Part shown: positions 2,967 to 18,151 of the stretch, piece by piece
How the letters are laid out: each line of letters starts with the position of its first letter
Numbering within the stretch: position 1 is the first letter of the stretch
IMG/VR virus record: IMGVR_UViG_3300032330_002177
Coordinates: 38,424-102,423 of that record
Direction: 5' to 3' (one strand)
Source of the DNA: a virus
Taxonomy: Duplodnaviria > Caudoviricetes
Length of the DNA stretch: 64,000 nucleotides
Notes under the pieces: model-generated
The model's input: only the letters and a program-made list of their open reading frames with translations
Told to the model about the DNA's origin: nothing
Database searches by the model: none
Position numbers and translations under genes: made by a program

Positions 2967-2977
2967 TACTCCCAGCT
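2945..2977 (+). terminator. stem-loop across the stop codon
   Basis: AGCTGAGGAGTAC...GTACTCCCAGCT. Confidence 0.45.
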
Positions 2978-3002
2978 CCATATTTATACTAAACGCTAAC
3001 CA

Positions 3003-3296
3003 ATGATATTCGAATTTAAATCAATGGCTGAGTTTAAAGCCAGATTAGAGAGCAATGACTTAAGAATGTCTGTTGAGATATTTAGTCAGGTAAAAAAAGC
3101 GTTTTATAGTAAAGTAAATAGGAAAAAAGTAACAGCTTTTACAGTTATAATTGGTGGTGAGGAGATAGATTTCATACTGGAGCGTCAATATTGGGTTAAA
3201 TCATTAACGACATGTATGAATGCATTTGCTGAAGTAGATATGTTTGAGGAGTGTATAGAGATTCAAAAAATGATTAGAGAATTAGAAACCGTATAA
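3003..3296 (+). CDS. hypothetical protein
   Basis: 97 aa, ATATTTAT at 2980 upstream. Confidence 0.7.
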   Translation: MIFEFKSMAEFKARLESNDLRMSVEIFSQVKKAFYSKVNRKKVTAFTVIIGGEEIDFILERQYWVKSLTTCMNAFAEVDMFEECIEIQKMIRELETV

Positions 3297-3298
3297 CT

Positions 3299-3685
3299 AT
3301 GAATACAAACGATATAACCCGAAAAAATGCTGTTTTGATATTTGAATGGTGTAAAAAAACATTTGGACTTAGTTCTATAAATGGAACATATCCTAAATTA
3401 GTATTTCATAAAAAAAGAAAAGACATAGCTGGTTATTACGATCCATGGAAAAATGAGATACATGTTTGTAAACCAAAGCATAGAACGTTTATGGGGTTCA
3501 TAGGAACAATAATACATGAATATACCCATTACCATCAAAGTATTAAACGACAATATTTTAAACTAGAAAAAATATATAGTTATAAAAATCATCCACTCGA
3601 ACGTGAGGCGAATAGAACTGAGAGACGATATAAATGGATGTGTTATTATGAAACTTTTTCAACCAATCCTTTTATGATTGAATAA
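3299..3685 (+). CDS. zincin-like metallopeptidase
   Basis: TIIHEYTHYHQ...HPLEREA. Confidence 0.75.
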   Translation: MNTNDITRKNAVLIFEWCKKTFGLSSINGTYPKLVFHKKRKDIAGYYDPWKNEIHVCKPKHRTFMGFIGTIIHEYTHYHQSIKRQYFKLEKIYSYKNHPLEREANRTERRYKWMCYYETFSTNPFMIE

Positions 3686-3733
3686 AATCTACTAAAATAA
3701 TTTAAAGAGCATACTTTTTAATTTTTATTTAAC

Positions 3734-3767
3734 GCCCAGGAGTTTCTACTCCAGGGCTCTTTTCTTT
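3734..3767 (+). terminator. intrinsic terminator
   Basis: GCCCAGGAGT-TTCT-ACTCCAGGGC followed by TCTTTTCTTT. Confidence 0.65.
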
Positions 3768-3819
3768 CATATTTATAGTACACACACTATTATTAACGAA
3801 ATTAAACCCCCATGAACCG

Positions 3820-4179
3820 ATGTCAAAAAATCCATTTGAGAAACTCGCTGACAAACTCCTTCATAGGGATAAAAAAGGTAATGACTTAAAAAAATACAAC
3901 ATTGATTTAAATGGTGTGTTTGGAGGAGGTGTTGATAATAAAGAAATTGAACATGATAGTTATAGAAAATTAATTGGTACTGCTAAAACATGTTTAAGTA
4001 GTCAATTACATTTTTGGTTGAGTAAAAAACAAGGTGAACACTCTTCAAGAATAAAAGCCATAGAGCGTGATATTAAAACTTCAGCTAATATCAGTGACCG
4101 TATTAACAAAAAGACATATACCCAAGAAGATATTAAAGTATTGAAAGACATACTATCGAAATATGGTTGCCTTGGCTGA
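3820..4179 (+). CDS. hypothetical protein
   Basis: 119 aa ORF. Confidence 0.65.
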   Translation: MSKNPFEKLADKLLHRDKKGNDLKKYNIDLNGVFGGGVDNKEIEHDSYRKLIGTAKTCLSSQLHFWLSKKQGEHSSRIKAIERDIKTSANISDRINKKTYTQEDIKVLKDILSKYGCLG

Positions 4180-4202
4180 CCGCCACTATCTAGCTATCTT
4201 TA
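4177..4202 (+). promoter_or_regulatory. conserved early-type promoter
   Basis: TGACC-N13-TATCTTTA. Confidence 0.75.
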
Positions 4203-4225
4203 TTATATAAGAAAATAAAGAAAGT

Positions 4226-4489
4226 ATGTATAACGAAAACGTAAACAGAGCAATTCAATTACAAATTGAAATCAATAAACAAATTGATAAATTTGATTGG
4301 GTTCAAAAAGAGTTGATTAATGATTTAGAAAATTTATTAGACACATTTAATTCTCATGAATGTGAATTATTGATTGAGTGGTATAATAAACAATCTAAAA
4401 ATAATGATGAACAATATGTTCAAATGGAGATTGATTTTTTACAAGAACAAGAAGGTCAATACGCACTTAATCAACAATGGGATATGTAA
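4226..4489 (+). CDS. hypothetical acidic protein
   Basis: 87 aa, directly after promoter. Confidence 0.7.
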   Translation: MYNENVNRAIQLQIEINKQIDKFDWVQKELINDLENLLDTFNSHECELLIEWYNKQSKNNDEQYVQMEIDFLQEQEGQYALNQQWDM

Positions 4490-4490
4490 T

Positions 4491-4516
4491 TGACCGGAAT
4501 TAATTCACTAAATTTA
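4491..4516 (+). promoter_or_regulatory. conserved early-type promoter
   Basis: TGACC-N13-TAAATTTA. Confidence 0.75.
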
Positions 4517-4540
4517 TTATATAAATAAAAATAAAAGGTT

Positions 4541-5407
4541 ATGAACACAAAACAAATTTTATACAACGCGTTAACATCTCAATTAGAAGTTAAAAAAACT
4601 GAATGTGAAACTTATCATAGTGAGGTTTATGAACCATCATTTGAAATATTAAGTGAGAGTATTAAGGAGTGGTTTACAAGTAAAATAAATTCGAAATTTA
4701 CAAAATTTGAGTTTACAGGTGATAAAATTATCTTTAATACAGATGATAGTTCAAGTTGGAGAGATGTTAGTTTTGTAATGAGAGGTTATAGTGAAAAGAA
4801 TTATGTAGAACTAGATTGGAATGGAGAAAATGCTCAATCAGATAATCAATCATCAATAGATAAAGGTATATTAATAGGTGAATTAGCTACTAATTTTTAT
4901 TTAGTTGAAGATAGGTTTAAAACAGATTGGTATCCAACTTATCAAAGTATAGTTGATGCTAGAAGAGAATATTTTAAAAGTCATGAAGAATTAGAATCAG
5001 CGTTAAGAAATCTTAAAAATGAAATATGGATTGATTCAATTGAAACAATGAAAAAAATTGGATTTGAAATTAAATCATTTAAACCAGATGTTTCATTAGA
5101 TTGGGATTATGTAAATAATGAACGTGTATATAAAATAAAAACAGATGATAAGAAAATTCAATTACAAGTTGGTCGTTCACAATATGATACAGCATATATT
5201 AGTGGCTATAAAATATTAGGTAAAAAAGGTAATAAATATAGTGTTGAAGCGTATAGAGAAGGTTATGGTTTAGAAAAAACTAGAACATATGAAGTGTTAG
5301 AAAAGAAAATGGAAGATTTTGTTAATAGAGTTAATAGTTGGGAGAATAGAGAAGCGGATGAGCATAAAGCAAAAGCAGAAATGAGATATATTGAATATAC
5401 AAAGTAA
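4541..5407 (+). CDS. hypothetical protein
   Basis: 288 aa ORF. Confidence 0.75.
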   Translation: MNTKQILYNALTSQLEVKKTECETYHSEVYEPSFEILSESIKEWFTSKINSKFTKFEFTGDKIIFNTDDSSSWRDVSFVMRGYSEKNYVELDWNGENAQSDNQSSIDKGILIGELATNFYLVEDRFKTDWYPTYQSIVDARREYFKSHEELESALRNLKNEIWIDSIETMKKIGFEIKSFKPDVSLDWDYVNNERVYKIKTDDKKIQLQVGRSQYDTAYISGYKILGKKGNKYSVEAYREGYGLEKTRTYEVLEKKMEDFVNRVNSWENREADEHKAKAEMRYIEYTK

Positions 5408-5410
5408 TTT

Positions 5411-5436
5411 TAACCGCAATAAATTAATTATATTTA
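5411..5436 (+). promoter_or_regulatory. early-type promoter variant
   Basis: TAACC-N13-TATATTTA. Confidence 0.6.
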
Positions 5437-5456
5437 AATAAATAAAATAACAAGTT

Positions 5457-5669
5457 ATGAAAATTGAATTTATCAAAGAATCAAAAGAAACTGGTGTTAC
5501 AACTTATTACACTAAAGCAGGTGGTTATTATATTAATAACTCATTATCACTTAAGGAACATGAAGCTAGAGAAAAATTTGAACGTATTAAAAAAGATGGT
5601 CCGAATGCACTTGAACATAAAATAGAAGTAGTTGAAACATTTGAATATAAAGCTAATGAAGAAAAATAA
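5457..5669 (+). CDS. hypothetical protein
   Basis: 70 aa ORF. Confidence 0.7.
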   Translation: MKIEFIKESKETGVTTYYTKAGGYYINNSLSLKEHEAREKFERIKKDGPNALEHKIEVVETFEYKANEEK

Positions 5670-5937
5670 AGATGAAATTATTGTTGAAACAATAATCAAT
5701 AAAATGTTTGAAATAGCAGGCCATAATGTTACATTTGAAGATATTAAAGGTAGAAAAGATAATTGGTATCAACAATGGACAATGACTGAGGAACAAAACC
5801 AGGAATGGAGAGAATGGGGAACCAAATATCTTAAGAAACAAAAACACCTACTTAAATCATATGCTAGTAGACAAATGGCTATGTTTGATTTAAATTATGG
5901 ATTAAAAATAGAACAAAATGATAAAATGGAAATATAA
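5656..5937 (+). CDS. hypothetical protein
   Basis: likely start MKKNKDE (ATG 5656) within the 5632 ORF. Confidence 0.65.
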   Translation: MKKNKDEIIVETIINKMFEIAGHNVTFEDIKGRKDNWYQQWTMTEEQNQEWREWGTKYLKKQKHLLKSYASRQMAMFDLNYGLKIEQNDKMEI

Positions 5938-6202
5938 ACCAAGTGGTAATTGTCCTATTCAAGCAGAAGGATGGTTTTTAGGGTATTACTTTTATTTCAG
6001 ATCAAGATATACTCAAGCAATAATTGAATTCAGCAAAACAGAAGCAGGATGGGAAAATGATCTAATACATGCTCGTTACATATTATTACATACACCTTAT
6101 TCTCTTATTGCAGGATGGATACCTAAATGGAAATGTAGGTTGCTAATCTGGAAAGGGTGTTGTATGTTTATATTCAAACAAAATAAAAATAAAATAATAT
6201 AA
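5918..6202 (+). CDS. hypothetical protein
   Basis: GNCPIQAEG...YFYFRSR. Confidence 0.7.
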   Translation: MIKWKYKPSGNCPIQAEGWFLGYYFYFRSRYTQAIIEFSKTEAGWENDLIHARYILLHTPYSLIAGWIPKWKCRLLIWKGCCMFIFKQNKNKII

Positions 6203-6961
6203 ATGAAAACAATAGTATTAGGTGATATACATGGGCGGTCTCAATGGAAACTAATAGTTGAAATGGAGAAACCAGATCAAGTTATTTTTATAGGTGATTA
6301 TTTTGACTCATATGATTTAACAGCGGCTGAGCAAATGAAGAATTTTAAAGAGATAATTAACTATAAAGAAACAACTGACGCTCATGTTATAATGTTAATA
6401 GGTAATCATGACTATCATTACTACCCAGAAATAGGAAATGTAGGTACAAGCGGTTATCAACATACAGCCGCTCCAGCTATTAGTCAATTAATAGATGAGA
6501 ATAGAAACCATTTACAAATGGCTTATTCAATTGATGATTATTTATTTACTCATGCTGGTGTTAGTTCAGAATTTATGGATAATGTGTTTGGTAAGGATGG
6601 ATGGAAAACAGAAGAAATATCATCATTACTATGTCAACAATTTTGGCACAAACCAAAAACATTTGAATTTGGAATGGCTGTTGATCTAAAAAAGATGTCA
6701 TGGTTAGATTCGAGTGGTGATAATAGAGAACAATCACCAATATGGATTAGACCAAGATCATTAATGAATGTTAATTATAATACACTACGTAAACAAGTAA
6801 TTCAAGTAGTTGGTCATACACAAGTTAAAAAATTAGATATTGAAGGAATGGCTACAGGTAATAGATATTATTTTATAGATTGTTTAGATACAAGTGGAGA
6901 ATATTTAATAATAGAAGATGGAGTTGTAAAATCTAATACTTGGAAATCCGAAGTAAAATAA
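6203..6961 (+). CDS. calcineurin-like metallophosphoesterase
   Basis: GDIHG, GDYFD, GNHD, HAG, GHT. Confidence 0.92.
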   Translation: MKTIVLGDIHGRSQWKLIVEMEKPDQVIFIGDYFDSYDLTAAEQMKNFKEIINYKETTDAHVIMLIGNHDYHYYPEIGNVGTSGYQHTAAPAISQLIDENRNHLQMAYSIDDYLFTHAGVSSEFMDNVFGKDGWKTEEISSLLCQQFWHKPKTFEFGMAVDLKKMSWLDSSGDNREQSPIWIRPRSLMNVNYNTLRKQVIQVVGHTQVKKLDIEGMATGNRYYFIDCLDTSGEYLIIEDGVVKSNTWKSEVK

Positions 6962-6975
6962 CTAAATTAAATTAT

Positions 6976-7092
6976 ATGAGTCAAGGTAAAAAACAGCAAC
7001 AGATTGATGATAGTGAAGGTATAGTAACATTCGCTATAGTAGGATTTATAATAACATTAATAACAGTTATAATTCAAAACTTAATATCATAA
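6976..7092 (+). CDS. 38 aa single-TM microprotein (not in ORF track)
   Basis: MSQGKKQQQIDDSEGIVTFAIVGFIITLITVIIQNLIS; stop overlaps the next ATG. Confidence 0.6.
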   Translation: MSQGKKQQQIDDSEGIVTFAIVGFIITLITVIIQNLIS

Positions 7093-7337
7093 TGGCTAGA
7101 CCAAAAGAAATACAAATTGAACCTAAACCACAGAAGTGGGAGCGTAAGTTTGAAGATGATGAATGTACTGAAATATGGAAGTATGATTCTAAAAAAACAA
7201 CTAAAGGACCTGTTGAAGTAGTTATAACATATAAAGGCGGTATTGATAAAACAGCAAAATGGAACAAACGAGCTAAAGAAGCTAAAGACGAACGTCGAAC
7301 CATTAGACAAATGAATAAAATTAAAAACAAAAAATAA
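7092..7337 (+). CDS. hypothetical basic protein
   Basis: 81 aa ORF. Confidence 0.7.
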   Translation: MARPKEIQIEPKPQKWERKFEDDECTEIWKYDSKKTTKGPVEVVITYKGGIDKTAKWNKRAKEAKDERRTIRQMNKIKNKK

Positions 7338-7461
7338 TTAGCCCTAAGTACACGGGAACGAAAGACAGCCATGGCATACCGTAAGATCTGCTCGCTTAAT
7401 AGCTCCTAATCGTTAGTAGGCACTGTTGCGCAACTCAGGTGGTGATCTAAAAGTTGTATAT

Positions 7462-7532
7462 TGTGATATGGTGTAACGGTAACACTACAGATTTTGATTC
7501 TGTCATTTCTGGTTCGAATCCAGGTGTCACAT
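7462..7532 (+). tRNA. tRNA-Gln(TTG)
   Basis: acceptor TGTGATA/TGTCACA, anticodon arm ACAGA-TTTTGAT-TCTGT, T-loop GGTTCGAATCC. Confidence 0.9.
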
Positions 7533-7655
7533 CTTGCGCAACATGAACACTTATGTTATCCTATTTGTGGGGTGTCATAGCAACAAACAAAGTAAGGGGG
7601 TCCGTAACAGTTTTGCTGGCTTTAGACAGACGGGCTTAAACAAGCTAGCAGTACT

Positions 7656-7727
7656 GCCGCGTTGGTCAAGGGGTTAAGACGCGTCCCTTTCACGGACGAG
7701 TCACGGGTTCGATTCCCGTACGTGGTA
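7656..7727 (+). tRNA. tRNA-Glu(TTC)
   Basis: acceptor GCCGCGT/ACGTGGT, anticodon arm CGTCC-CTTTCAC-GGACG, T-arm ACGGG-TTCGATT-CCCGT. Confidence 0.92.
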
Positions 7728-7742
7728 CTAAATTATTAAGTT

Positions 7743-7991
7743 ATGAATTTTGGAACAAACGGATGCATGTATAACTGTGGTGATAGTTGTACAGGAGAAT
7801 GTATAGAACCCACGAATGATGAACAATACATAGGTCTTATATTAGACGAAAGAAACGAACACTATATAATTGGTTATAGAGAAACATCAGATTTAGAAAA
7901 ACTAAAAGAGTGGAAGAAAGAAAGGTTAGCGTGTTCTAATGTTATTGATTGTAAAATATTAAAAATTGAAGAAAGTTATGAATCTAATTGA
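7743..7991 (+). CDS. hypothetical protein, Cys-rich N-terminus
   Basis: CMYNCGDSCTGEC. Confidence 0.65.
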   Translation: MNFGTNGCMYNCGDSCTGECIEPTNDEQYIGLILDERNEHYIIGYRETSDLEKLKEWKKERLACSNVIDCKILKIEESYESN

Positions 7992-9099
7992 TACAGAATA
8001 CCAAGACTTACTTTGCTACATTCTAGGTAATGGAGTAGAGAAGAAAGACAGAACAGGAACAGGAACACTATCCATATTCGGATGGCAGATCAGACACAAC
8101 ATGAAAGATGGCTTTCCACTCCTAACAACAAAGAAGATGCATTGGAAATCAATCGTAACAGAACTACTATGGTTCTTGCGTGGTGATACCAATATCAAAT
8201 ACCTTGTTGATAATGGATGTCATATATGGGATGGTGATTGCTACCAAAATTATAGAAAGATAGAATTTGAAAGAATAATGTCTCAAAAACATGGTGAATA
8301 TCTTATAAGTAAAGAAGAGTTCATCAACAATATCAAAACCGATGATGAGTTTGCTGAGAAGTGGGGTGAATTAGGACCAATTTATGGTAAGCAGTGGAGA
8401 GATTGGAGACACCATTACCCTAAAACATATCCTGAAGTAAGTCAATATGAACAATATATAGGTGTTAAGACAATAGACCAAATAGCAAACCTAATCTCTG
8501 AACTCAAAACAAATCCTGACTCAAGACGATTAATGGTTAATGCTTGGAATGTAGGTGAGTTAGACCAAATGACGCTTCCACCATGTCATTATGGATTTCA
8601 AGTATATACGAGAGAGTTGAGTTATTTTGAACGATACAAGTTAGCGGATATTCAAGGATATGAAGAATATGGAAAAAGATTTGGCGGGTGGTACTTATTA
8701 GATGAAAATAAAGAATCTAATATAAAGGATTGGAATATAAAAAATATACCAACCCGAGCAATCTCTTTAATGTGGAACCAACGCTCAGTAGATACATTCC
8801 TTGGTTTACCATTCAACATAGCATCTTATGGATTGCTACTCCAAATCATAGCCAAAGAAGTTAATATGGTTCCGGATGAATTGATTGGTAATTTAGGTGA
8901 CGTACACTTATACACAAACCATATTGAGCAAGCTAAAGAGCAAATTGGTAGAGAGCCATTTGAGTTGCCTACATTAAATATACTACACAATCCATGTAAG
9001 GATATAATACCAACAGATATATCATGTTATAATATATTTGATTTTGAATTAGAAAACTATCAATCACATCCAGCAATCAAAGCACCATTAAGTAACTAA
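7978..9099 (+). CDS. thyA: thymidylate synthase
   Basis: DRTGTGT, FPLLTTKK, LGPIYGKQWR, DSRR, LPPCH, QRSVDTFLGLPFNIASY; likely start ATG 7978. Confidence 0.97.
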   Translation: MNLIDTEYQDLLCYILGNGVEKKDRTGTGTLSIFGWQIRHNMKDGFPLLTTKKMHWKSIVTELLWFLRGDTNIKYLVDNGCHIWDGDCYQNYRKIEFERIMSQKHGEYLISKEEFINNIKTDDEFAEKWGELGPIYGKQWRDWRHHYPKTYPEVSQYEQYIGVKTIDQIANLISELKTNPDSRRLMVNAWNVGELDQMTLPPCHYGFQVYTRELSYFERYKLADIQGYEEYGKRFGGWYLLDENKESNIKDWNIKNIPTRAISLMWNQRSVDTFLGLPFNIASYGLLLQIIAKEVNMVPDELIGNLGDVHLYTNHIEQAKEQIGREPFELPTLNILHNPCKDIIPTDISCYNIFDFELENYQSHPAIKAPLSN

Positions 9100-9100
9100 T

Positions 9101-9304
9101 ATGATGTTAGAATTTAAAAACCCAATCCCGGTTATTGTAGAATGTAATAAAGAAGGTTATGCTATCTATGTACAGAGTGGTGGTACATTTGAAAATGATA
9201 TATGGTGTGTAGTACATTGTGATGGAGGTATAGTAAGACATTACCAATCAGATCAAATTAAGATGCGCAAAAATTCAACTCTCAGAATAGATAAAAATAA
9301 ATAA
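9101..9304 (+). CDS. hypothetical protein
   Basis: 67 aa ORF. Confidence 0.7.
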   Translation: MMLEFKNPIPVIVECNKEGYAIYVQSGGTFENDIWCVVHCDGGIVRHYQSDQIKMRKNSTLRIDKNK

Positions 9305-9305
9305 T

Positions 9306-9398
9306 ATGTGGTGGACAGTTTTAACATCAATAGTATGTTGGGAATTATTAAGACGATTATATTTTATAATAATGAATAAAATGAATAACGATGAGTAA
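9306..9398 (+). CDS. 30 aa hydrophobic microprotein (not in ORF track)
   Basis: MWWTVLTSIVCWELLRRLYFIIMNKMNNDE, fills the gap. Confidence 0.45.
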   Translation: MWWTVLTSIVCWELLRRLYFIIMNKMNNDE

Positions 9399-9699
9399 AC
9401 GTTACGTTTGGCAAAACATAGACAATAATGCTAAACCCACTTCTAATGACTGGTGGCCAATTAAGAAACAACGTAAGAAACTAGCAACCAAATTTGCATC
9501 ACACCAGCAATCAGGACGCTATGTACACATTATGGATGATGAGATGTTCAAAACCATTCTCCAAATGCTAGAATCTAATACGGATATACAGATGGCTAAA
9601 ACTATAATATGGAATAGTAAAATCAATGATGAACAAGTAAAAATATTAATAAACAAGTATTGCCGTATACTATTAAACAATGATGAAGATAATAAATAA
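9391..9699 (+). CDS. hypothetical protein
   Basis: 102 aa; C-terminal helix resembles part of the 19604 protein. Confidence 0.6.
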   Translation: MSKRYVWQNIDNNAKPTSNDWWPIKKQRKKLATKFASHQQSGRYVHIMDDEMFKTILQMLESNTDIQMAKTIIWNSKINDEQVKILINKYCRILLNNDEDNK

Positions 9700-9931
9700 A
9701 CCATTAAGTGAACTTAATAATATATTACATAACAACGCCGCAGGTAAAAAACACCGTAGATGGAGTATATTCAGACCATACACATATAGGGGTGAAGTAT
9801 CTAGAATATTAAAAATAACAGATCATGAAAGTAAGTCAACAACAATACGTTTTACCAATGGGGGGTTACATAAAACAATTAGACGAGTGCGATCAAGAAG
9901 ATACAGCAATAGTAAAAATAGCATTATTTAA
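9680..9931 (+). CDS. basic YxxRG microprotein 1
   Basis: YTYRGEVSRILKI. Confidence 0.55.
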   Translation: MMKIINKPLSELNNILHNNAAGKKHRRWSIFRPYTYRGEVSRILKITDHESKSTTIRFTNGGLHKTIRRVRSRRYSNSKNSII

Positions 9932-10094
9932 TAAAGCAATAAATAGCATTAACCATAGAAGGTATGTATTTAATAAATCATATATACGTCGAGGTAGTAG
10001 TAGTAGACGATCTAAAATATTCATTAAAAGGTTTACTAAAGCACATAAATACCCTATAAATTATCAATATACATCATCAAGTATAGCTATATAA
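9825..10094 (+). CDS. basic YxxRG microprotein 2 (start uncertain)
   Basis: YIRRGSSSRRSKI. Confidence 0.5.
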   Translation: MKVSQQQYVLPMGGYIKQLDECDQEDTAIVKIALFNKAINSINHRRYVFNKSYIRRGSSSRRSKIFIKRFTKAHKYPINYQYTSSSIAI

Positions 10095-10096
10095 TA

Positions 10097-10276
10097 ATGG
10101 CATATAAAAAACAATACAACGTACGAGGGATAAAGAATAAACATAGAATAAGAAACAGGCATAAACGATATATTAACAGATGGAATAAAATATACATAAA
10201 CCGTATAGCACAAATTAATAAACAACAACGTATGCTTCATCTACAACATCAGTTAATACAAAAGTATGGTCTATGA
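10097..10276 (+). CDS. basic YxxRG microprotein 3, 59 aa (not in ORF track)
   Basis: MAYKKQYNVRGIKNKHRIRNRHKRYINRWNKIYINRIAQINKQQRMLHLQHQLIQKYGL. Confidence 0.6.
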   Translation: MAYKKQYNVRGIKNKHRIRNRHKRYINRWNKIYINRIAQINKQQRMLHLQHQLIQKYGL

Positions 10277-10419
10277 CATATATTAATAAAGTAATTAAAA
10301 AACATTTCACTCATCAATACGCAGATAGAGGTAAAATAAGTAGACGATCAAAGGTAACATGGAAAGGTATATTAAGACGAATACGAGCAGCTAAACATCA
10401 AAGTAAAATAAGAATATAG
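10273..10419 (+). CDS. basic YxxRG microprotein 4, 48 aa (not in ORF track)
   Basis: MTYINKVIKKHFTHQYADRGKISRRSKVTWKGILRRIRAAKHQSKIRI; ATGA overlap. Confidence 0.65.
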   Translation: MTYINKVIKKHFTHQYADRGKISRRSKVTWKGILRRIRAAKHQSKIRI

Positions 10420-10422
10420 TTA

Positions 10423-10599
10423 ATGAAACATAAACGTAAATTATATCCGAAACGCGGACGGGATAGAAGGCTTGGAAAAGTCAGTTACCATATCCCAGGG
10501 TATATAGAAAGTGAATTAGTTAAAATGATATCAGCACACATACGAGATGAAATTGATAAGGAGATAATAAATAGGTTAAAGACACATGACATATATTAA
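10423..10599 (+). CDS. YxxRG microprotein 5, 58 aa, with capsid-spine-like helix (not in ORF track)
   Basis: MKHKRKLYPKRGRDRRLGKVSYHIPGYIESELVKMISAHIRDEIDKEIINRLKTHDIY. Confidence 0.65.
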   Translation: MKHKRKLYPKRGRDRRLGKVSYHIPGYIESELVKMISAHIRDEIDKEIINRLKTHDIY

Positions 10600-10696
10600 C
10601 AACATAATTAAAAAACAATTCTATCATCGATATACAAGTAGAGGTAAATTAGGTAGACGAATAAAAATGTCATGGCATTTAAAAAGTATTATATAG
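10586..10696 (+). CDS. basic YxxRG microprotein 6, 36 aa, paralog of 4 (not in ORF track)
   Basis: MTYINNIIKKQFYHRYTSRGKLGRRIKMSWHLKSII. Confidence 0.65.
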   Translation: MTYINNIIKKQFYHRYTSRGKLGRRIKMSWHLKSII

Positions 10697-10824
10697 TAAC
10701 ATTTATTAAGTGGAATGGTCGTTTTAAATTTACATTAAACTACAGAACGAGAGGTAGAATAAGACGTGCAACGTTAGTAAGATTTAACAAACGATTAATA
10801 TGGAGACGAAACAAAACAGTGTGA
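10672..10824 (+). CDS. basic YxxRG microprotein 7, 50 aa (not in ORF track)
   Basis: MAFKKYYIVTFIKWNGRFKFTLNYRTRGRIRRATLVRFNKRLIWRRNKTV. Confidence 0.6.
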   Translation: MAFKKYYIVTFIKWNGRFKFTLNYRTRGRIRRATLVRFNKRLIWRRNKTV

Positions 10825-10931
10825 TATATACTAAGGCATTTAAAAAACGTAAACATGGACTCATAATAGATCCAAGTTATATAAGTAGAGGACTAATAGG
10901 ACGAATGACGAAAATAATAAATAATAGATAA
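10821..10931 (+). CDS. basic YxxRG microprotein 8, 36 aa, GTG start (not in ORF track)
   Basis: MIYTKAFKKRKHGLIIDPSYISRGLIGRMTKIINNR; GTGA overlap. Confidence 0.6.
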   Translation: MIYTKAFKKRKHGLIIDPSYISRGLIGRMTKIINNR

Positions 10932-10955
10932 TAATCCAGGAATAAATAAAAATAA

Positions 10956-11195
10956 ATGACGCGTACGGGTAAACAAATATATGAACGAGCGATACGGACG
11001 AAATGGGTATATAAGAAACATATATATACGTCGTTACAGCAAATATATGAGTTACGTGGTCGGTTAAATAGGAAAATTAAGTTATGGGTGGGTGGTGGTA
11101 AACAAAGAACGCCGGCGTTAGCGCAATATATGGGTAGTAAGCGAATAGCGAAACGGGTGACATATGGTTACCGTAGGCGACATATCAATTATTAA
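10956..11195 (+). CDS. basic YxxRG microprotein 9
   Basis: YELRGRLNRKIKL. Confidence 0.6.
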   Translation: MTRTGKQIYERAIRTKWVYKKHIYTSLQQIYELRGRLNRKIKLWVGGGKQRTPALAQYMGSKRIAKRVTYGYRRRHINY

Positions 11196-11350
11196 AACGT
11201 TTTATAGTAACGTATAGGACAAGTAAGTGGCGTATGGGTATGTGATAAGTATTAGGAATGTGGGTGACCGGTGTTTCGTGTCATGTCCACCCCTTTCATG
11301 GGTCAAACAAGCCCTCCACAAACGGGACCCTATATAAGTATATATTAGGC

Positions 11351-11376
11351 TGACCGGCTTAAAAATCATATATTTA
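11351..11376 (+). promoter_or_regulatory. conserved early-type promoter
   Basis: TGACC-N13-TATATTTA. Confidence 0.75.
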
Positions 11377-11404
11377 ATTATATTAAAAAACAAAATAAAC
11401 AGTT

Positions 11405-11635
11405 ATGAGTTATCAAACAAAGGTTAGAGCGAATTACCTTAATCGCACAGCAAAATTGTCTTTCTACACACACCGCAAACGTACAGGTGATCTTACTCGT
11501 TTATCAGAAGAGACAGGCTACTCAGTAAGCCACTTATCAAACATGATTAACGGTAATAGAAAAGTAACTGACACAGCAGCAAATGCTATGTATATGGTTG
11601 CTCGCCGCCGTCAAAAGAACGCTATCGCAGCGTAG
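11405..11635 (+). CDS. XRE/Cro-like HTH protein
   Basis: LTRLSEETGYSVSHLSNMINGNRKV. Confidence 0.75.
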   Translation: MSYQTKVRANYLNRTAKLSFYTHRKRTGDLTRLSEETGYSVSHLSNMINGNRKVTDTAANAMYMVARRRQKNAIAA

Positions 11636-11661
11636 TTTTAAATTAGTTACTGCCATGGATT

Positions 11662-11689
11662 AGCGGCTCTCCTATTAGGGGGAGTCGCT
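11662..11689 (+). terminator. stem-loop after HTH gene
   Basis: AGCGGCTCTCCT...GGGGAGTCGCT, no clear U-tract. Confidence 0.45.
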
Positions 11690-11734
11690 CCTATGCCTAT
11701 AGAGCATTGATTACTAACGCCCTATACACTTGCC

Positions 11735-11760
11735 TGACCGCGACATGTTCACTATCTTTA
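11735..11760 (+). promoter_or_regulatory. conserved early-type promoter
   Basis: TGACC-N13-TATCTTTA. Confidence 0.75.
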
Positions 11761-11777
11761 TTATATAATAAGAAAAT

Positions 11778-12050
11778 ATGACAGATATGAACACAAATTA
11801 CACAGACGCAAGAATGAATTTAAACGAAGTATGTAACTGGTTAACCAATCAGGGGTATGAAGATTTAGGGGATATTATTAAGGATAAATTCACTTACCAT
11901 ACATGGGTAGTAGACGGTATGATAAGAAAGGATGTTGTTGAGGATATATTCGAACGTTGTTTTGGTGATAATATGATGTTCAGACAATTACAATGTGATG
12001 TAATAACATCATTAAGTATAGTACCGTTACATGAAGCACATGTTGACTAA
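11778..12050 (+). CDS. hypothetical protein
   Basis: 90 aa ORF. Confidence 0.7.
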   Translation: MTDMNTNYTDARMNLNEVCNWLTNQGYEDLGDIIKDKFTYHTWVVDGMIRKDVVEDIFERCFGDNMMFRQLQCDVITSLSIVPLHEAHVD

Positions 12051-12057
12051 TATTGGT

Positions 12058-12083
12058 TGACCGGGTTCAGTTCACTAAATTTA
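12058..12083 (+). promoter_or_regulatory. conserved early-type promoter
   Basis: TGACC-N13-TAAATTTA. Confidence 0.75.
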
Positions 12084-12122
12084 ATATATAAATAATAAAT
12101 AAACACAAAAACAATTAAGGTT

Positions 12123-12398
12123 ATGAAAAAAGAAACAACAAACACACCAACAGCAAAACGTGGCCGTCCAACGGTTGAAGGTTCTAAACGTCAAGCAGTA
12201 TTAGCAATGCGTGCAGCTAAAGTAGCAGCAGGCGGAGAAATTAAACGTGGTCGTCCAGCCGGTACTAACAAATTAAAAGTCGATCCATCAATTGAGGTGG
12301 TATTGAAAGTTAAAGCGCCTAAGGCAAGAAAGGTAACTGATACAGTAGCGGTAGTTACAATGGATGAGTTTATCGATAACGTTACCGACGCTCAATAA
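12123..12398 (+). CDS. AT-hook DNA-binding protein
   Basis: two KRGRP motifs. Confidence 0.75.
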   Translation: MKKETTNTPTAKRGRPTVEGSKRQAVLAMRAAKVAAGGEIKRGRPAGTNKLKVDPSIEVVLKVKAPKARKVTDTVAVVTMDEFIDNVTDAQ

Positions 12399-12412
12399 TA
12401 TATAATAGAAAC

Positions 12413-12450
12413 GCTCCGACTGACACGTACATACGTAGTCGGAGCCATTT
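12413..12450 (+). terminator. stem-loop terminator
   Basis: GCTCCGACT...AGTCGGAGC then CATTT. Confidence 0.55.
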
Positions 12451-12491
12451 CTTAACTAATCACAATACGTATAAATAAAAATTATAATATA

Positions 12492-12743
12492 ATGACAAAC
12501 GAACTAATGCAGTATCTAAATGAAATGAAAGCACAGATACAAGAACTATATGAAGATATAGATAGCGAATTACGTGGAACCGATAATCCAGACTTAATAC
12601 TAGACGGTTATAATAACGTGACTGAAAAATTAGGTGAAGCTATGAATAACCTAGAATCTATGATTTCGGATCTAGATATGGGAGTATATAATAAAATAGA
12701 TTCGTTGGATTTAGATGACGAGATGTCAGAGGTCGAAGACTAA
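12492..12743 (+). CDS. highly acidic small protein
   Basis: about 23 D/E versus 4 K/R in 83 aa. Confidence 0.7.
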   Translation: MTNELMQYLNEMKAQIQELYEDIDSELRGTDNPDLILDGYNNVTEKLGEAMNNLESMISDLDMGVYNKIDSLDLDDEMSEVED

Positions 12744-12966
12744 AGGGTCGCGGACGTTAGAGGCTCAGTGGAAGTAAAAGGTCAGGGATGTTAGAGGTCC
12801 CCCGGTAATTGAGGTCCATCGACGGGAGAGGTTGACCACGAAAAAAAAGATATGTGTTTTTAGATCTTAAACGATCTTTCACCACACCCCAAATATATAC
12901 CTATATATGACCATTTGTGAAATAGTTCACGGATTGTCAAAAAGAGATTTTTATAGACTTTTTTGT

Positions 12967-12992
12967 CGACCCAAGATATATACGTATATTTA
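12967..12992 (+). promoter_or_regulatory. early-type promoter variant
   Basis: CGACC-N13-TATATTTA. Confidence 0.65.
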
Positions 12993-13011
12993 ATATATAA
13001 AATAATAAGTT

Positions 13012-13155
13012 ATGAAATTAGTTATGATCGTGTTAATAGTATGCCTTACGGGATGCTCAAGTAGTAAAATTATATACCAGCGAGATATAGAAGGTAAAAT
13101 ATGGAAATCACATTCCGACGTATCAACAATAACAGGTTTAAAATATAAAAAATAA
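13012..13155 (+). CDS. 47 aa lipoprotein (not in ORF track)
   Basis: MKLVMIVLIVCLTGC lipobox. Confidence 0.65.
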   Translation: MKLVMIVLIVCLTGCSSSKIIYQRDIEGKIWKSHSDVSTITGLKYKK

Positions 13156-13158
13156 GTT

Positions 13159-13410
13159 ATGACAAAGTATCAAAAGTATTCATTAGGTTGGTTAGCAATC
13201 TACGTAGCGGTATTAGGTAATGTAATCTTAGCCGCATTATCAAGTTGTAATTACACATCACCAAGTCAAGACACTCAGATGTTACAATCAAAATATGAAA
13301 CCGTATATCAAATAAATCAATGGCAATATATTACATGTGATTCGATTCATGTATATCATATTAGAGTATCAGGAGATGGTCAAATTGAAACAACTATTAA
13401 AATTAAATAA
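13159..13410 (+). CDS. probable lipoprotein
   Basis: hydrophobic signal ending in LSSC. Confidence 0.6.
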   Translation: MTKYQKYSLGWLAIYVAVLGNVILAALSSCNYTSPSQDTQMLQSKYETVYQINQWQYITCDSIHVYHIRVSGDGQIETTIKIK

Positions 13411-13411
13411 T

Positions 13412-13669
13412 ATGAAATTTATAGAATTAACAAGAAGCTCTAGTCAGACATTAACAAAAGATAATTATAGTCCTGTCTTAATCAATCCAATGATGATAAC
13501 AGCATTAGTAGATTTAGGACCAGTCGATCAAGTATTTAATACACATGTGTATACAATGGGTGGTAGTCATGTAGTGAAGGAGACTATAGAACAAATACAG
13601 AAGTTAATACAAAAATCAGAAAACACAACCACTGTCACTTGGAAGACAAGTCCAACACCACATATATGA
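13412..13669 (+). CDS. FlbD-like small protein
   Basis: MKFIELTR...VLINPMMITAL...VVKETIEQIQKLI; ATG 13412. Confidence 0.55.
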   Translation: MKFIELTRSSSQTLTKDNYSPVLINPMMITALVDLGPVDQVFNTHVYTMGGSHVVKETIEQIQKLIQKSENTTTVTWKTSPTPHI

Positions 13670-13839
13670 GAGACCCAATAAATAGCGAAATAAGAACATA
13701 TTCGGATGACCCAAGTAGTATGAAAGGAGATCCACTAGAAGGTTTAAGTAAGTTTTTTGATTTTATGGCTATAGTATTTGGATTAGGAACACTAACAATA
13801 ATAATTGAAATAATAATTTGGATAATAAATAATATATGA
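13666..13839 (+). CDS. small membrane protein
   Basis: C-terminal TM segment. Confidence 0.55.
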   Translation: MRDPINSEIRTYSDDPSSMKGDPLEGLSKFFDFMAIVFGLGTLTIIIEIIIWIINNI

Positions 13840-14393
13840 TAATATTTAAAGGTAAAAAGAAAAATAAATATATTCACACCAGAGACATCACATTAGATGA
13901 TATTCGGGCTGTATTTTTTCCTAAAGATTTTCATGAGAAATATAGATACTTAGGTTCAGTACCACATTTTGAATCAGGTGATATATTCAAAGCAATGGAA
14001 CCATTAGTTATTTATATGGACTATAAAGCTAAACCTAAATGGTGTCCAAGATGGTTTCTTCGGTTTTTACACCTATTTGGAAACGATAATTCAATTGTTA
14101 GAGTTAGAAACCGAGCATTATATAACTTAAGTAATCAGTTGACTAAAGGCATTTTAATCGTTGATTATAAAACTAAATGGACCGAATATGATCTTCGTAT
14201 ATCCGTATATGGGGATGAAAGGATGAATGACTTAGCTGATTCTATTGAACATGAATTTTATAATAAAGGATATAGAGCTGATTTAGCTGAACAGATTAAG
14301 GAATTAGATCCTAATACAATGTATCATAGTGGTAATAGTATTAATTCATTAAAAGTAGAATTAGATAGATTAGAAACCAAAAACGATAAATAA
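13836..14393 (+). CDS. hypothetical protein
   Basis: 185 aa ORF. Confidence 0.75.
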   Translation: MIIFKGKKKNKYIHTRDITLDDIRAVFFPKDFHEKYRYLGSVPHFESGDIFKAMEPLVIYMDYKAKPKWCPRWFLRFLHLFGNDNSIVRVRNRALYNLSNQLTKGILIVDYKTKWTEYDLRISVYGDERMNDLADSIEHEFYNKGYRADLAEQIKELDPNTMYHSGNSINSLKVELDRLETKNDK

Positions 14394-14394
14394 T

Positions 14395-14724
14395 ATGAGT
14401 GGAGGAGCATTTGATTACAAACAATATAATATTGGAATGATTGCTGATGAAGTTGAACAATTAATACTCAATAACGGTAGACCCAAAACACAAGAAGAAT
14501 TGCGAAATGAGAGTTGGGGCAGAGATAATTCATGGTATGAAAAATATCCCGAAGATCTAAATCACTACAAATATCCAGATGATGTTATTGAGGAATTTAA
14601 GAAAGGTTTAGATATACTTAGAAGAGCTCAGGTATATGCTCAACGTATTGATTGGTTAGTTAGTGGTGATGATGGTGAGGAATCATTCCATGAAAGATTA
14701 AAAGAAGATTTAGATAAATTATAA
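14395..14724 (+). CDS. conserved phage hypothetical protein
   Basis: MSGGAFDY...RIDWLVSGDDGEESF. Confidence 0.8.
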   Translation: MSGGAFDYKQYNIGMIADEVEQLILNNGRPKTQEELRNESWGRDNSWYEKYPEDLNHYKYPDDVIEEFKKGLDILRRAQVYAQRIDWLVSGDDGEESFHERLKEDLDKL

Positions 14725-14727
14725 TAT

Positions 14728-14892
14728 ATGAAACGACATAAACAATATCGTTTTGAACGTATTGATGATAACCGAACTAGAGTTATTGTCATTATGCGTA
14801 GGCCCAAATCAAGATCATATATCCGTAGGAAAATGTATTGGGCTTGGAATCATAAATGGGATCAATCATACTATAAAAAATATAACACATGA
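14728..14892 (+). CDS. 54 aa basic protein (not in ORF track)
   Basis: MKRHKQYRFERIDD...; starts 3 nt after the upstream stop. Confidence 0.55.
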   Translation: MKRHKQYRFERIDDNRTRVIVIMRRPKSRSYIRRKMYWAWNHKWDQSYYKKYNT

Positions 14893-15008
14893 TAGCAATT
14901 TGCATTTTAACAGCGTTGATAATCTATATTGTTTGGGGAAGTATTTATATGCTTAAACAAATTAATCGTATTAATGATAAGTTTGAAGAAACATCAGAAC
15001 ATAAATAA
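14889..15008 (+). CDS. 39 aa TM microprotein (not in ORF track)
   Basis: MIAICILTALIIYIVWG...; ATGA overlap. Confidence 0.55.
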   Translation: MIAICILTALIIYIVWGSIYMLKQINRINDKFEETSEHK

Positions 15009-15037
15009 CTAAAACACAACACACGCCGCCCAAATAT

Positions 15038-15068
15038 GGCTACTCCGAATGGAGTAGCCTTTTTTATT
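15038..15068 (+). terminator. intrinsic terminator
   Basis: GGCTACTCC-GAAT-GGAGTAGCC-TTTTTT. Confidence 0.85.
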
Positions 15069-15081
15069 CTATCAACGCGGA

Positions 15082-15107
15082 TGACCGCGGCTCGCTTAGT
15101 ATATTTA
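15082..15107 (+). promoter_or_regulatory. conserved early-type promoter
   Basis: TGACC-N13-TATATTTA. Confidence 0.75.
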
Positions 15108-15125
15108 GATATAAATAAGAAGCAC

Positions 15126-15275
15126 ATGAAACATTTGAATTACACGAGCGCAAAAAGGTTAGACATGGTCAGCCAAGGAGCTTATGATGGTCGTTTTAAA
15201 AATAGGGTTATTACCGATAAGAAAAAACAACAATCAAAAACAGCGGCTCGTAAATGGAAAAATGACCGCGACTAA
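15126..15275 (+). CDS. 49 aa basic protein, weakly ArfA-like
   Basis: GAYDGRFKNRVITDKKK; start ATG 15126 after the promoter. Confidence 0.6.
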   Translation: MKHLNYTSAKRLDMVSQGAYDGRFKNRVITDKKKQQSKTAARKWKNDRD

Positions 15276-15288
15276 TTCGTTAAATTTA
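15263..15288 (+). promoter_or_regulatory. conserved early-type promoter
   Basis: TGACC-N13-TAAATTTA. Confidence 0.75.
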
Positions 15289-15311
15289 TTATATAATAAA
15301 AAGTTAAAAAT

Positions 15312-15734
15312 ATGAACAAGGTAAAAATTATCAACACTACAGACATTAATGAAACTGAATTTATCAACGATCGTAAAGGTGAATATAGAGCGATTGTTAA
15401 AGTACAAGCCGGGTTTATGACAGTTGTAGATGATTTAGGTATACAAGCTAAATGGGGTAAGCAACAATGGAATAGAGCGATTGATGTGTTCCGTGGATTT
15501 AAAAGAGGTGCTTTACAAACAATACAATTTAAAGCTAAAGGTACTGATACATGGTTAACTGTATTTGCTCGTAAGGGTAAAAAGATAGTATTGATGGATA
15601 AACAATTGTTCATGGATATGAAAGTAGGTGATATTAATCAGGATTGGTTTAACACAAACTTATATAGTCAAACCAACTATAAAATGTGTAAAGCTGAAAC
15701 ATGGGATGATAAGGCGTTTGTGATGAATAAATAG
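15312..15734 (+). CDS. hypothetical protein
   Basis: 140 aa ORF. Confidence 0.75.
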   Translation: MNKVKIINTTDINETEFINDRKGEYRAIVKVQAGFMTVVDDLGIQAKWGKQQWNRAIDVFRGFKRGALQTIQFKAKGTDTWLTVFARKGKKIVLMDKQLFMDMKVGDINQDWFNTNLYSQTNYKMCKAETWDDKAFVMNK

Positions 15735-15736
15735 AA

Positions 15737-15762
15737 TGACCTTAATTCAATCACTAAATTTA
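15737..15762 (+). promoter_or_regulatory. conserved early-type promoter
   Basis: TGACC-N13-TAAATTTA. Confidence 0.75.
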
Positions 15763-15779
15763 TTATATAAATAAAAAAT

Positions 15780-16025
15780 ATGAATAATACAAAAGAGAAT
15801 TTACAAACATTAATTGACTTACCAAGACATCATTTTGATGCTATTATTAAGTTAATTAATCCGAAATTAAATGATAACGATTTAAGACCATTATTTCCGG
15901 AGGGATGGGATCGAGATGAGTGTTGGCCGGATGGGAAATATAACTATGATGCGTTTCGTAAGTATCAAGTAGTGATTGATCAACAAGCTGAAGATATATT
16001 TAATTGGGTAATCGAAAATAGATAA
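15780..16025 (+). CDS. hypothetical protein
   Basis: 81 aa ORF. Confidence 0.7.
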   Translation: MNNTKENLQTLIDLPRHHFDAIIKLINPKLNDNDLRPLFPEGWDRDECWPDGKYNYDAFRKYQVVIDQQAEDIFNWVIENR

Positions 16026-16026
16026 T

Positions 16027-16263
16027 ATGAAACTAATAGACAAACACGAGTATACAAAAACAGTATTTGAATTTGATCTTGATGAAGCAGATCATATTGA
16101 TGAATTTGAAAATCCGTTTTATGTTCATCACCAGGAATCAATTGATGGGTTATGGATTGTAAATGAGTGGCTAGTGTATGATGACGCTAATGAACAATTA
16201 CCTTCCGACCATAGAATACATCAATTATTAGTTCATATGGCAAAACAAGAATTAAAAAAATAA
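16027..16263 (+). CDS. hypothetical acidic protein
   Basis: 78 aa ORF. Confidence 0.7.
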   Translation: MKLIDKHEYTKTVFEFDLDEADHIDEFENPFYVHHQESIDGLWIVNEWLVYDDANEQLPSDHRIHQLLVHMAKQELKK

Positions 16264-16266
16264 TAT

Positions 16267-16380
16267 ATGAAACACAACAAAGAAGATATATTCTATTACT
16301 TAACAGTATGGTTCGCAACATCTATTATTGTGTTATGGACAATTGGAATGATTTTTAAAATAATAACAAAAATAATATAA
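16267..16380 (+). CDS. 37 aa TM microprotein (not in ORF track)
   Basis: MKHNKEDIFYYLTVWFATSIIVLWTIGMIF... Confidence 0.55.
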   Translation: MKHNKEDIFYYLTVWFATSIIVLWTIGMIFKIITKII

Positions 16381-16381
16381 T

Positions 16382-16552
16382 ATGAAAAAATTACAGTACG
16401 GTTTAATGATTTTTGGATTTATAATAGCTGGGTTATCAGCTATGATGTGGTATGGGCATGGAGTACATACATGGATTTGGCAAGTGACAACTATGATTTG
16501 GATCGCGGATGGATATTTAAAATCTAAACAAATTGATAAACTAGAAAAATAA
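16382..16552 (+). CDS. 56 aa membrane microprotein (not in ORF track)
   Basis: MKKLQYGLMIFGFIIAGLSAMMW... Confidence 0.6.
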   Translation: MKKLQYGLMIFGFIIAGLSAMMWYGHGVHTWIWQVTTMIWIADGYLKSKQIDKLEK

Positions 16553-16555
16553 TAT

Positions 16556-16717
16556 ATGCAAAAGAAAGAAAGTAAAACAAATAAACATTTTTATTTTAGT
16601 ATGGCTAAATCTTTTATTAGGATTTTAGGATTCGCATGTCTTTTTTATAATGATTTTAAAGGAGCGGCTGTAATGTTAATGTTAGCAGAAGGACTAGGAA
16701 TTGTTGAAGAATTTTAA
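16556..16717 (+). CDS. 53 aa membrane microprotein (not in ORF track)
   Basis: HFYFSMAKSFIRI...LAEGLGIVEEF. Confidence 0.65.
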   Translation: MQKKESKTNKHFYFSMAKSFIRILGFACLFYNDFKGAAVMLMLAEGLGIVEEF

Positions 16718-16722
16718 TTGAT

Positions 16723-16748
16723 TGACCCCGATTCTCACGCTATCTTTA
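16723..16748 (+). promoter_or_regulatory. conserved early-type promoter
   Basis: TGACC-N13-TATCTTTA. Confidence 0.75.
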
Positions 16749-16771
16749 TTATATAAGAAAAATAAGAAAGT

Positions 16772-16993
16772 ATGTATTTAAATGTCACAGAGTTAAATGA
16801 GTTAATTTACTCATTAGGAATTGCGGAAATGAAAGGTTCATTTGTAAATAAAGGAGTTAATAGTCGCTTACGTGATAAATTATCTTCAGAGTTAGAAAAA
16901 CGTAATGCTGAATTAGCAGAACAGTGTGAAAAAGATAAGATTGAACATGATATGAATTTCAAAAATGCTTATTACAGAAAGGGAGATTATTAA
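16772..16993 (+). CDS. hypothetical protein
   Basis: 73 aa ORF. Confidence 0.7.
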   Translation: MYLNVTELNELIYSLGIAEMKGSFVNKGVNSRLRDKLSSELEKRNAELAEQCEKDKIEHDMNFKNAYYRKGDY

Positions 16994-17020
16994 TCAATTA
17001 AAAATAAAAATTAAACAATT

Positions 17021-17266
17021 ATGGGATTTTATTACGACAAGAACTCTGACCAAGAAAGAATGTTAAACAAATTTGACAAAGTAACTAAACGTAACAAACA
17101 AGAGATGAATGAAGACCATCCAGATTTTGATCCAACAATGTTACCATTAGCTGAACAGTTCAAATATTGGGCTAAGAAAAATGAAATAACTCGCGCCGCT
17201 AAAGAAGTAGTAACTGATGAGCCTAAAAAATTATTAAACCATAATTACTCACATAGAAAAGCATAA
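17021..17266 (+). CDS. hypothetical protein
   Basis: 81 aa ORF. Confidence 0.7.
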   Translation: MGFYYDKNSDQERMLNKFDKVTKRNKQEMNEDHPDFDPTMLPLAEQFKYWAKKNEITRAAKEVVTDEPKKLLNHNYSHRKA

Positions 17267-17267
17267 T

Positions 17268-17507
17268 ATGAAAATACCTACAAACAGAAAGGTTTTAAGT
17301 AACACCATTAAGGAGTTAGATGAGATGGATTTAGTATTTTTGAGAGAAATGTTAGTGTCACGTTGTGAAGAAGTTCTTAATAATAAAGAACAAGTGAAAG
17401 CAGATTTACAATTCAGTTTTATATCTCCAAAATTGTATATTGATTCAATGGAAAATATTTTAAATAAAATTAAATTCGAAGACGAAATATGGAAAAAGAA
17501 TATATAG
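17268..17507 (+). CDS. hypothetical protein
   Basis: 79 aa ORF. Confidence 0.7.
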   Translation: MKIPTNRKVLSNTIKELDEMDLVFLREMLVSRCEEVLNNKEQVKADLQFSFISPKLYIDSMENILNKIKFEDEIWKKNI

Positions 17508-17689: not shown

Positions 17690-17700
17690 AAATAAATTAT

Positions 17701-17922: not shown

Positions 17923-17936
17923 TAAAAAATAAAGTT

Positions 17937-18128: not shown

Positions 18129-18151
18129 TATAATTTTTTATAATATTTCAC

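Follow-up and report, generated by a model that had tools for sequence, protein, structure and literature searches.

The window analysed here is a 64,000-nucleotide stretch (positions 38,424 to 102,423) of the IMG/VR virus record IMGVR_UViG_3300032330_002177, which is 102,423 bp long, has a GC content of 29%, is about 63% complete according to CheckV and carries nearly every gene on the + strand. The region 9680-11195 of the window is tiled by nine small + strand open reading frames (ORFs), which almost certainly form a genuine protein-coding family of paralogs, judging from their motif, their codons and their relatives in other phages. A preliminary description of this DNA had proposed that an apparent ORF desert is filled here by small, Lys/Arg-rich ORFs with overlapping or abutting starts and stops, each carrying one short motif, and our coordinates agree with it at every motif position. 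The nine ORFs, with the start of the motif in each and the contigs that hold their orthologs, are as follows.

ORF1, 9680..9931, + strand: 83 residues, motif at 9779; a 20-nucleotide overlap with the end of the upstream gene of 102 residues; orthologs in L003, L005, L007 and L096, family profile E value 3e-13.
ORF2, 9825..10094, + strand: 89 residues, motif at 9981; the acidic N-terminal part overlaps ORF1 in another frame; orthologs in L005, L007 and L096, missing from L003; the least constrained of the nine.
ORF3, 10097..10276, + strand: 59 residues, motif at 10115, six residues from the N-terminus; the poorest fit to the extended motif; orthologs in L003, L005, L006 and L007.
ORF4, 10273..10419, + strand: 48 residues, motif at 10318; its ATG overlaps the stop codon of ORF3; paralog of ORF6.
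ORF5, 10423..10599, + strand: 58 residues, motif at 10444; a C-terminal acidic amphipathic helix.
ORF6, 10586..10696, + strand: 36 residues, motif at 10631; a lineage-specific duplicate of ORF4.
ORF7, 10672..10824, + strand: 50 residues, motif at 10741; overlaps ORF6.
ORF8, 10800..10931, + strand: 43 residues, motif at 10878; overlaps ORF7; retained even in the two-gene array of L011.
ORF9, 10956..11195, + strand: 79 residues, motif at 11046; the most widely retained member.

Neighbouring ORFs overlap or abut, with a 107-nucleotide overlap between ORF1 and ORF2, a shared ATGA at 10273 between ORF3 and ORF4, and further downstream overlaps of 14, 25 and 25 nucleotides. The acidic C-terminal helix of ORF5 recurs in relatives of 69-73 residues from distant phages. 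ORF6 is present in the window, L006 and L007 and is not found in L005 and L096.

Every ORF of the array contains one copy of Y-x-x-R-G-x3-[RK]-x2-[KR]-hydrophobic, and a second, weaker block (hydrophobic-K-K-H or Y) is located 4-15 residues N-terminal of YxxRG. ORF3 conforms to this extended motif only weakly (profile E value 0.028), although the L003 ortholog of ORF3 fits well. The shorter YxxRG pattern has 13 sites on the + strand of the window and one on the - strand, and nine of the 13 lie inside 9680-11195. The complete record holds 17 such sites, with the eight outside the array all lacking the extended motif. One of these, a YRFRG at the start of the record, falls within a QueE-like radical-SAM gene and was discarded as a chance match. 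A shuffling test, proposed beforehand, failed to generate a comparable number of motifs: across 5000 dinucleotide-preserving shuffles of the 1516-nucleotide region, YxxRG sites averaged 0.34 and never exceeded 4, against the nine observed, and the rest of the genome has 0.105 sites per 1516 nucleotides. When the record was scanned in six frames with the family profile, matches were confined to these nine ORFs.

When 59 distinct motif copies, taken from the window as well as from related contigs, are compared, two codons encode the invariant Tyr, five the invariant Arg, drawn from both the CGN and the AGR boxes, and all four the invariant Gly, which bears out the variation in Arg and Gly codons noted in the preliminary description. 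The only nucleotide similarity between array genes is that of the ORF4/ORF6 pair (79% identity over 90 nucleotides, 56% at the protein level), correctly described earlier as duplicates, and Rfam yields no match in 8500-13500. Because of the codon variety, the lack of a wider DNA repeat family and the lack of an Rfam match, we regard the motif as conserved at the amino acid level. A DNA- or RNA-level repeat with an AGAGGT-like core in purine-rich sequence, in which the small ORFs would be accidental, has in its favor the purine skew of the + strand and the AGAGGT core common to several copies. However, each invariant residue varies in its codons, repeats and Rfam matches are absent as described, the reading frames are preserved at 36% nucleotide divergence and the - strand of related loci does not carry the motif, leaving this explanation with a negligible probability.

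Orthologous arrays are found on the freshwater metagenome contigs L003-L007, L009, L011, L096 and L097, with frames, lengths and overlaps preserved. L003-L007, L096 and L097 share synteny with the window, showing the same order of thymidylate synthase, three small genes, the array and a conserved gene for a helix-turn-helix (HTH) protein. Between the window and L003, at a nucleotide divergence of 22-36%, ORF1, ORF3, ORF4 and ORF9 stay open at near-equal lengths, and the probability that all four would do so under random substitution at this divergence is about 3e-7. The ratio of nonsynonymous to synonymous substitution rates (dN/dS) against L096 is 0.30-0.86 for the array genes and 0.11-0.47 for nine flanking genes, with similar values for other pairs. 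ORF2 reaches 0.86-1.19 (orthologs in L005, L007 and L096), and ORF9 is conserved along its whole length across seven orthologs. These ratios show that the array genes are under purifying selection, somewhat more relaxed than that on their neighbors. The comparison of orthologous arrays, which had been proposed as a check, therefore supports the claim of selection at the protein level, as related phages preserve the frame and the motif and not the nucleotides. In two related contigs, ORF2 and ORF3 were missed by the gene callers.

The arrangement could also be read as the frameshift-broken debris of one former repeat protein, in other words a pseudogene, given that the motifs occupy all three frames at irregular spacings of 110-203 nucleotides and that ORF4 and ORF5 share a frame with a single TAG between them. 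This is hard to reconcile with an ATG of its own for each piece, with stops, starts and overlaps that are the same in diverged relatives, with purifying selection on each piece and with the lone members found in other phages, and we consider it as implausible as the DNA repeat. Both the non-coding and the pseudogene readings are effectively excluded. The shared frame of ORF4 and ORF5 also raised the question of stop codon reassignment, which was rejected because all three stop codons (TAA, TAG and TGA) terminate genes of the array and because the long genes are open under translation table 11.

The nine peptides have isoelectric points of 10.0-12.0 and net charges of +7 to +19, and Arg makes up 12.8% of their residues against 3.0% in the longer proteins of the phage. 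No signal peptide or hydrophobic segment was detected in any of the nine. The AlphaFold2 model of the ORF4 core, built from a 46-sequence alignment, shows a helix (residues 3-12), a loop (13-20) with Y-A-D-R-G and a second helix (21-42), with a mean predicted local distance difference test score (pLDDT) of 80; the basic second helix is confidently predicted. The model of ORF9 is all-helical and of low confidence (pLDDT 64), with the motif inside a helix. Outside the YxxRG core the sequences of the paralogs differ. Each peptide would consist of a short helix ending in hydrophobic-K-K-H, followed by [Y/F]-x-x-R-G and a Lys/Arg-rich helix.

Database searches agree with the earlier view that the family has no known counterpart. 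None of the 46 members scanned matches Pfam, PHROG or NCBIfam at the curated cut-offs; the best matches are at chance level (E values of 0.01-0.1), belong to unrelated families and do not recur across the members. For the nine peptides themselves there is no PHROG match at E values up to 10, including phrog_1380, a family of tandem small basic prophage proteins. When 1.84 billion representative proteins were searched exhaustively with a profile, the matches consisted of the peptides themselves, four lake-metagenome orthologs and two eukaryotic repeat proteins (P0003 and P0009), the latter dismissed as low-complexity false positives, and nothing further. The sequence-profile search of the core against the PDB and the Foldseek search of the ORF4 model against the PDB are both without a match. 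A match of the ORF5 type to the N-terminus of microsporidian eL18 in the PDB (E value 0.044) is regarded as chance. The ESM Atlas offers only feature matches below 0.8 and generic helical look-alikes, a word-index search found no longer or fused form of the domain, direct IMG/VR scans with the 102-residue neighbor and ORF9 gave no match, and literature searches on the motif and on tandem small basic phage proteins brought up nothing relevant. The family is therefore absent from the databases searched, yet it is of a known kind, namely the tandem small basic accessory proteins of phage early regions, among which it is unusual in the size of its array and in the strictness of its three-residue core.

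Two resemblances to named families were followed further. The C-terminal helix of the ORF5 type (10501-10599 in the window and L026:543-749) aligns to positions 170-200 of the Pfam family Gp23 (PF07068) with E values of 8e-4 to 9e-3. These matches score 12.5-19.4 bits, below the cut-off of 24.4 bits, and cover about 30 of the 376 profile positions, and the record, 63% complete, revealed no capsid gene of the Gp23 type. The resemblance concerns one helix at most and may reflect mimicry or chance. The second candidate is the ribosomal protein bS21 (PF01165), which Bacteroidota phages are known to carry. It was suggested by an aromatic residue and a turn that precede a long basic helix, and like the array peptides it is a small basic helical protein, with an upstream basic patch. 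However, a six-frame search of the record for PF01165 is empty at E values up to 10, the single preliminary candidate failing to score, where the same search is positive in 13 of 14 control genomes, and hhalign comparisons of two family alignments with a 7-sequence S21 alignment (Escherichia coli and phage records) give probabilities of only 0.2% and 0.03%. We rejected this identity.

The protein encoded downstream of the array (11405-11635, 76 residues, HTH-like) is the most conserved of the region, with 56-89% identity over 135 loci, and its gene marks the boundary between hypervariable gene sets. Its position and its conservation make this gene a useful anchor for the phage group, and we used it to survey 80 metagenome and 55 IMG/VR loci from a single freshwater phage group that is widespread. 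Across this group, the slot that precedes the HTH gene is hypervariable. In close relatives the same slot holds arrays of nine, at least four (L003), three (L112) or two genes (L011, with ORF8 and ORF9 only), with differing members, and one nine-gene lineage lacks the ORF6 duplicate and carries a different extra member. ORF9 is invariably the last gene ahead of the HTH promoter. In the distant relatives L026, L059, L072, L078, L117 and L122, five to seven motif genes lie dispersed to either side of the HTH gene, interspersed with other small early genes; a form of 134-137 residues and one variant with Phe in place of Tyr are among them. The longer form (L072:7239-7640, L078:2013-2420 and L026:3380-3757) carries the core motif in the middle of the protein and, beyond it, a C-terminal domain without a match to any known family; the protein has 26 unnamed metagenome homologs.

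The majority of relatives carry no member of the family. In five complete or near-complete relatives of 160-179 kb, three of them with direct terminal repeats, no members were found by a search that recovers eight of the nine members in the window's own record. Where the family is present, its members cluster only at this locus. This distribution shows the family to be dispensable, patchy and quickly gained and lost.

The intergenic stretch 11196-11350, between ORF9 and the HTH promoter, is G+C-rich and non-coding, and its nucleotides are conserved in L004, L005, L019 and L063. Its predicted RNA fold is no better than that of shuffled sequences (z-score of -0.05).

A promoter-like motif, TGACC followed after 12-22 nucleotides by TATAT, has 18 matches against 3.6 expected and precedes many genes of the early region. 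Two copies frame the array.

Nearest upstream promoter-like motif, 4491..4522, + strand: the presumed start of a unit of about 6.7 kb.
Next promoter-like motif, 11351..11373, + strand: ahead of the HTH gene, the downstream limit of the array unit.

No copy occurs between 4491 and 11351, so that the array is probably the tail of a transcription unit of about 6.7 kb that would include the phosphoesterase and thymidylate synthase genes. A scan for sigma-70 promoters gave matches at background level, and a terminator scan found no + strand terminator after ORF9. The copies of the promoter-like motif span 1966-18199 of the window, with one more at 48828 (further examples are 11735-11766 and 12058-12089), and about eleven of them, located before genes of the early region, share a longer consensus ending in TTTATTATAT.

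Only 4 of the 89 long genes of the whole record have a Shine-Dalgarno-like site, the upstream regions being A-rich, and similarity to cultured phages is limited to a weak match with Flavobacterium phages. The starts free of Shine-Dalgarno sites and the weak Flavobacterium similarity are compatible with a Bacteroidota host for the source phage, a large (about 160-180 kb) freshwater virus of the myovirus type. Between thymidylate synthase and the array, the ORF of 67 residues at 9101-9304 has 72% DNA identity to a gene of a 61-kb podovirus from Manatee Spring (MW202828.1), an unrelated phage in which the matching gene follows a flavin adenine dinucleotide-dependent thymidylate synthase. It may be a small gene that travels with thymidylate synthases of both types. 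The QueE-like gene mentioned above is located at the start of the record, before the window (G000:C1:2-589), and genes that by eye look like QueC and QueD are found upstream of the HTH gene in the relatives L052 and L077, an indication that this phage group may have a 7-deazaguanine (preQ0-type) pathway.

We tentatively interpret the array as a lineage-specific family of arginine-rich helical microproteins, expanded in tandem, whose function includes binding of nucleic acid; as a whole we would give this interpretation somewhat less than an even chance. The family has expanded through duplications in tandem, within an accessory slot that is hypervariable and probably forms the 3' end of an early or DNA-metabolism operon, where the nine genes would be co-transcribed and translationally coupled. 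The basic core would bind a polyanion, with RNA or DNA as the most likely target, much as arginine-rich motif (ARM) peptides do, which is the weakest step of the proposal, and the specificity or partner of each paralog would be set by its variable flanks. Three functional options had been offered in the preliminary description, and among them the binder of nucleic acid or ribosomes is our best guess. Several observations weigh against it. The coding status comes from comparative evidence, and binding is something that we infer. The models of ORF4 and ORF9 disagree on the location of the motif, loop in one and helix in the other. A high content of Arg and Lys would also fit binding to acidic proteins or membranes, dN/dS values near 1 for ORF2 and the ORF4/ORF6 pair fit an arms race as well as a nucleic acid role, and no RNA or DNA emerged as a candidate target.

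Among known systems, one comparison is with ARM peptides that bind RNA, such as the N antiterminators of lambdoid phages and the Tat and Rev peptides of bovine and human immunodeficiency viruses (BIV and HIV). These are short, Arg-rich, helical or hairpin peptides that fold on their partner nucleic acid, and the phage examples are early genes. The array peptides are likewise short and Arg-rich, and several read R-G-x-x-G-R-R-hydrophobic-K, reminiscent of the BIV Tat ARM. The likeness has limits: lambdoid N is a single gene of about 100 residues with an N-terminal ARM and known nut/boxB sites, whereas the array has nine paralogs with an internal motif and an invariant Tyr, and no element resembling nut came to light. 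A more specific form of the nucleic acid interpretation, which we think unlikely, is that the array is a library of Arg-rich peptides with rapid turnover, that the invariant Tyr/Arg/Gly core docks on a common nucleic acid or ribonucleoprotein scaffold, such as host ribosomal or defense RNA or the leader RNAs of the phage itself, and that the variable flanks re-aim each paralog.

Alternatively, the peptides could be inhibitors for host takeover or anti-defense that bind host proteins, for example at acidic surfaces of defense proteins or of transcription and translation proteins, in which case the array would be a "gene accordion" diversified by an arms race and the invariant core would only nucleate the fold. 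This possibility, which we rate as less probable than not by a clear measure, gains from the hypervariable accessory locus beside a conserved regulator, the patchy distribution with its fast gain and loss, a constraint looser than that of the flanks with the two dN/dS values near 1, and the variable tails, among them the ORF5-type helix that weakly resembles a capsid protein helix. Against these points, no match to an anti-defense or defense-related family was obtained, the fourfold enrichment of Arg and the invariant Tyr/Arg/Gly are more typical of nucleic acid binders, and the capsid resemblance falls under the Pfam cut-off. The type of locus and its turnover fit the inhibitor and the nucleic acid explanations equally well.

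The motif might instead be a tag read by one common machine, such as a modifying enzyme, a protease or a packaging or targeting system, with the variable parts as cargo. In favor of this stands the architecture of the array, in which short paralogs in tandem share a single invariant motif and otherwise vary, and two known systems invite the comparison. The internal proteins IPI-III of phage T4 are hypervariable, basic, small and encoded in tandem by late genes, and they share a capsid-targeting sequence, an N-terminal leader that is cut by the prohead protease. Like them, the array has tandem small basic proteins united by one short motif. In contrast to the T4 leader, the array motif is internal, at a variable distance of 6 to 52 residues from the N-terminus and mid-protein in the members of 134 residues, and the genes come after thymidylate synthase in an operon of the early type and are not among head genes. 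Precursor arrays of ribosomally synthesized and post-translationally modified peptides (RiPPs) are similar in having tandem short paralogous ORFs with a conserved segment and a variable remainder; the array peptides differ in being uniformly polycationic and conserved as whole small proteins. No RiPP recognition element and no maturation enzyme of the radical-SAM, cyclodehydratase or protease kind is linked to the family among the neighbors in the window, L026, L096 and L011, which encode small unknown proteins, thymidylate synthase, a phosphoesterase and the HTH protein, and no modifying enzyme or protease accompanies the family at any locus. We therefore hold the tag explanation to be improbable.

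Phage annotation routinely overlooks microproteins of fewer than 60 residues or leaves them without a name, and the array illustrates, through comparative evidence alone, how selected genes can fill an apparent ORF desert. It also provides a family absent from every database with a compact signature. Experiments on this family should be easy, as its members of 36-89 residues can be synthesized, three residues are invariant, and natural relatives with 0, 2, 3 and 9 copies exist. If the peptides are plain nucleic acid coats, the finding would be of modest interest. If the paralogs are re-aimed on a common scaffold, they would represent a new class of combinatorial RNA-targeting microproteins of phages that evolve as a gene accordion. 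More generally, if they are directed at RNA or at host defense, they would be early phage effectors of a new type, and the array would exemplify accordion-like expansion in a bacterial virus.

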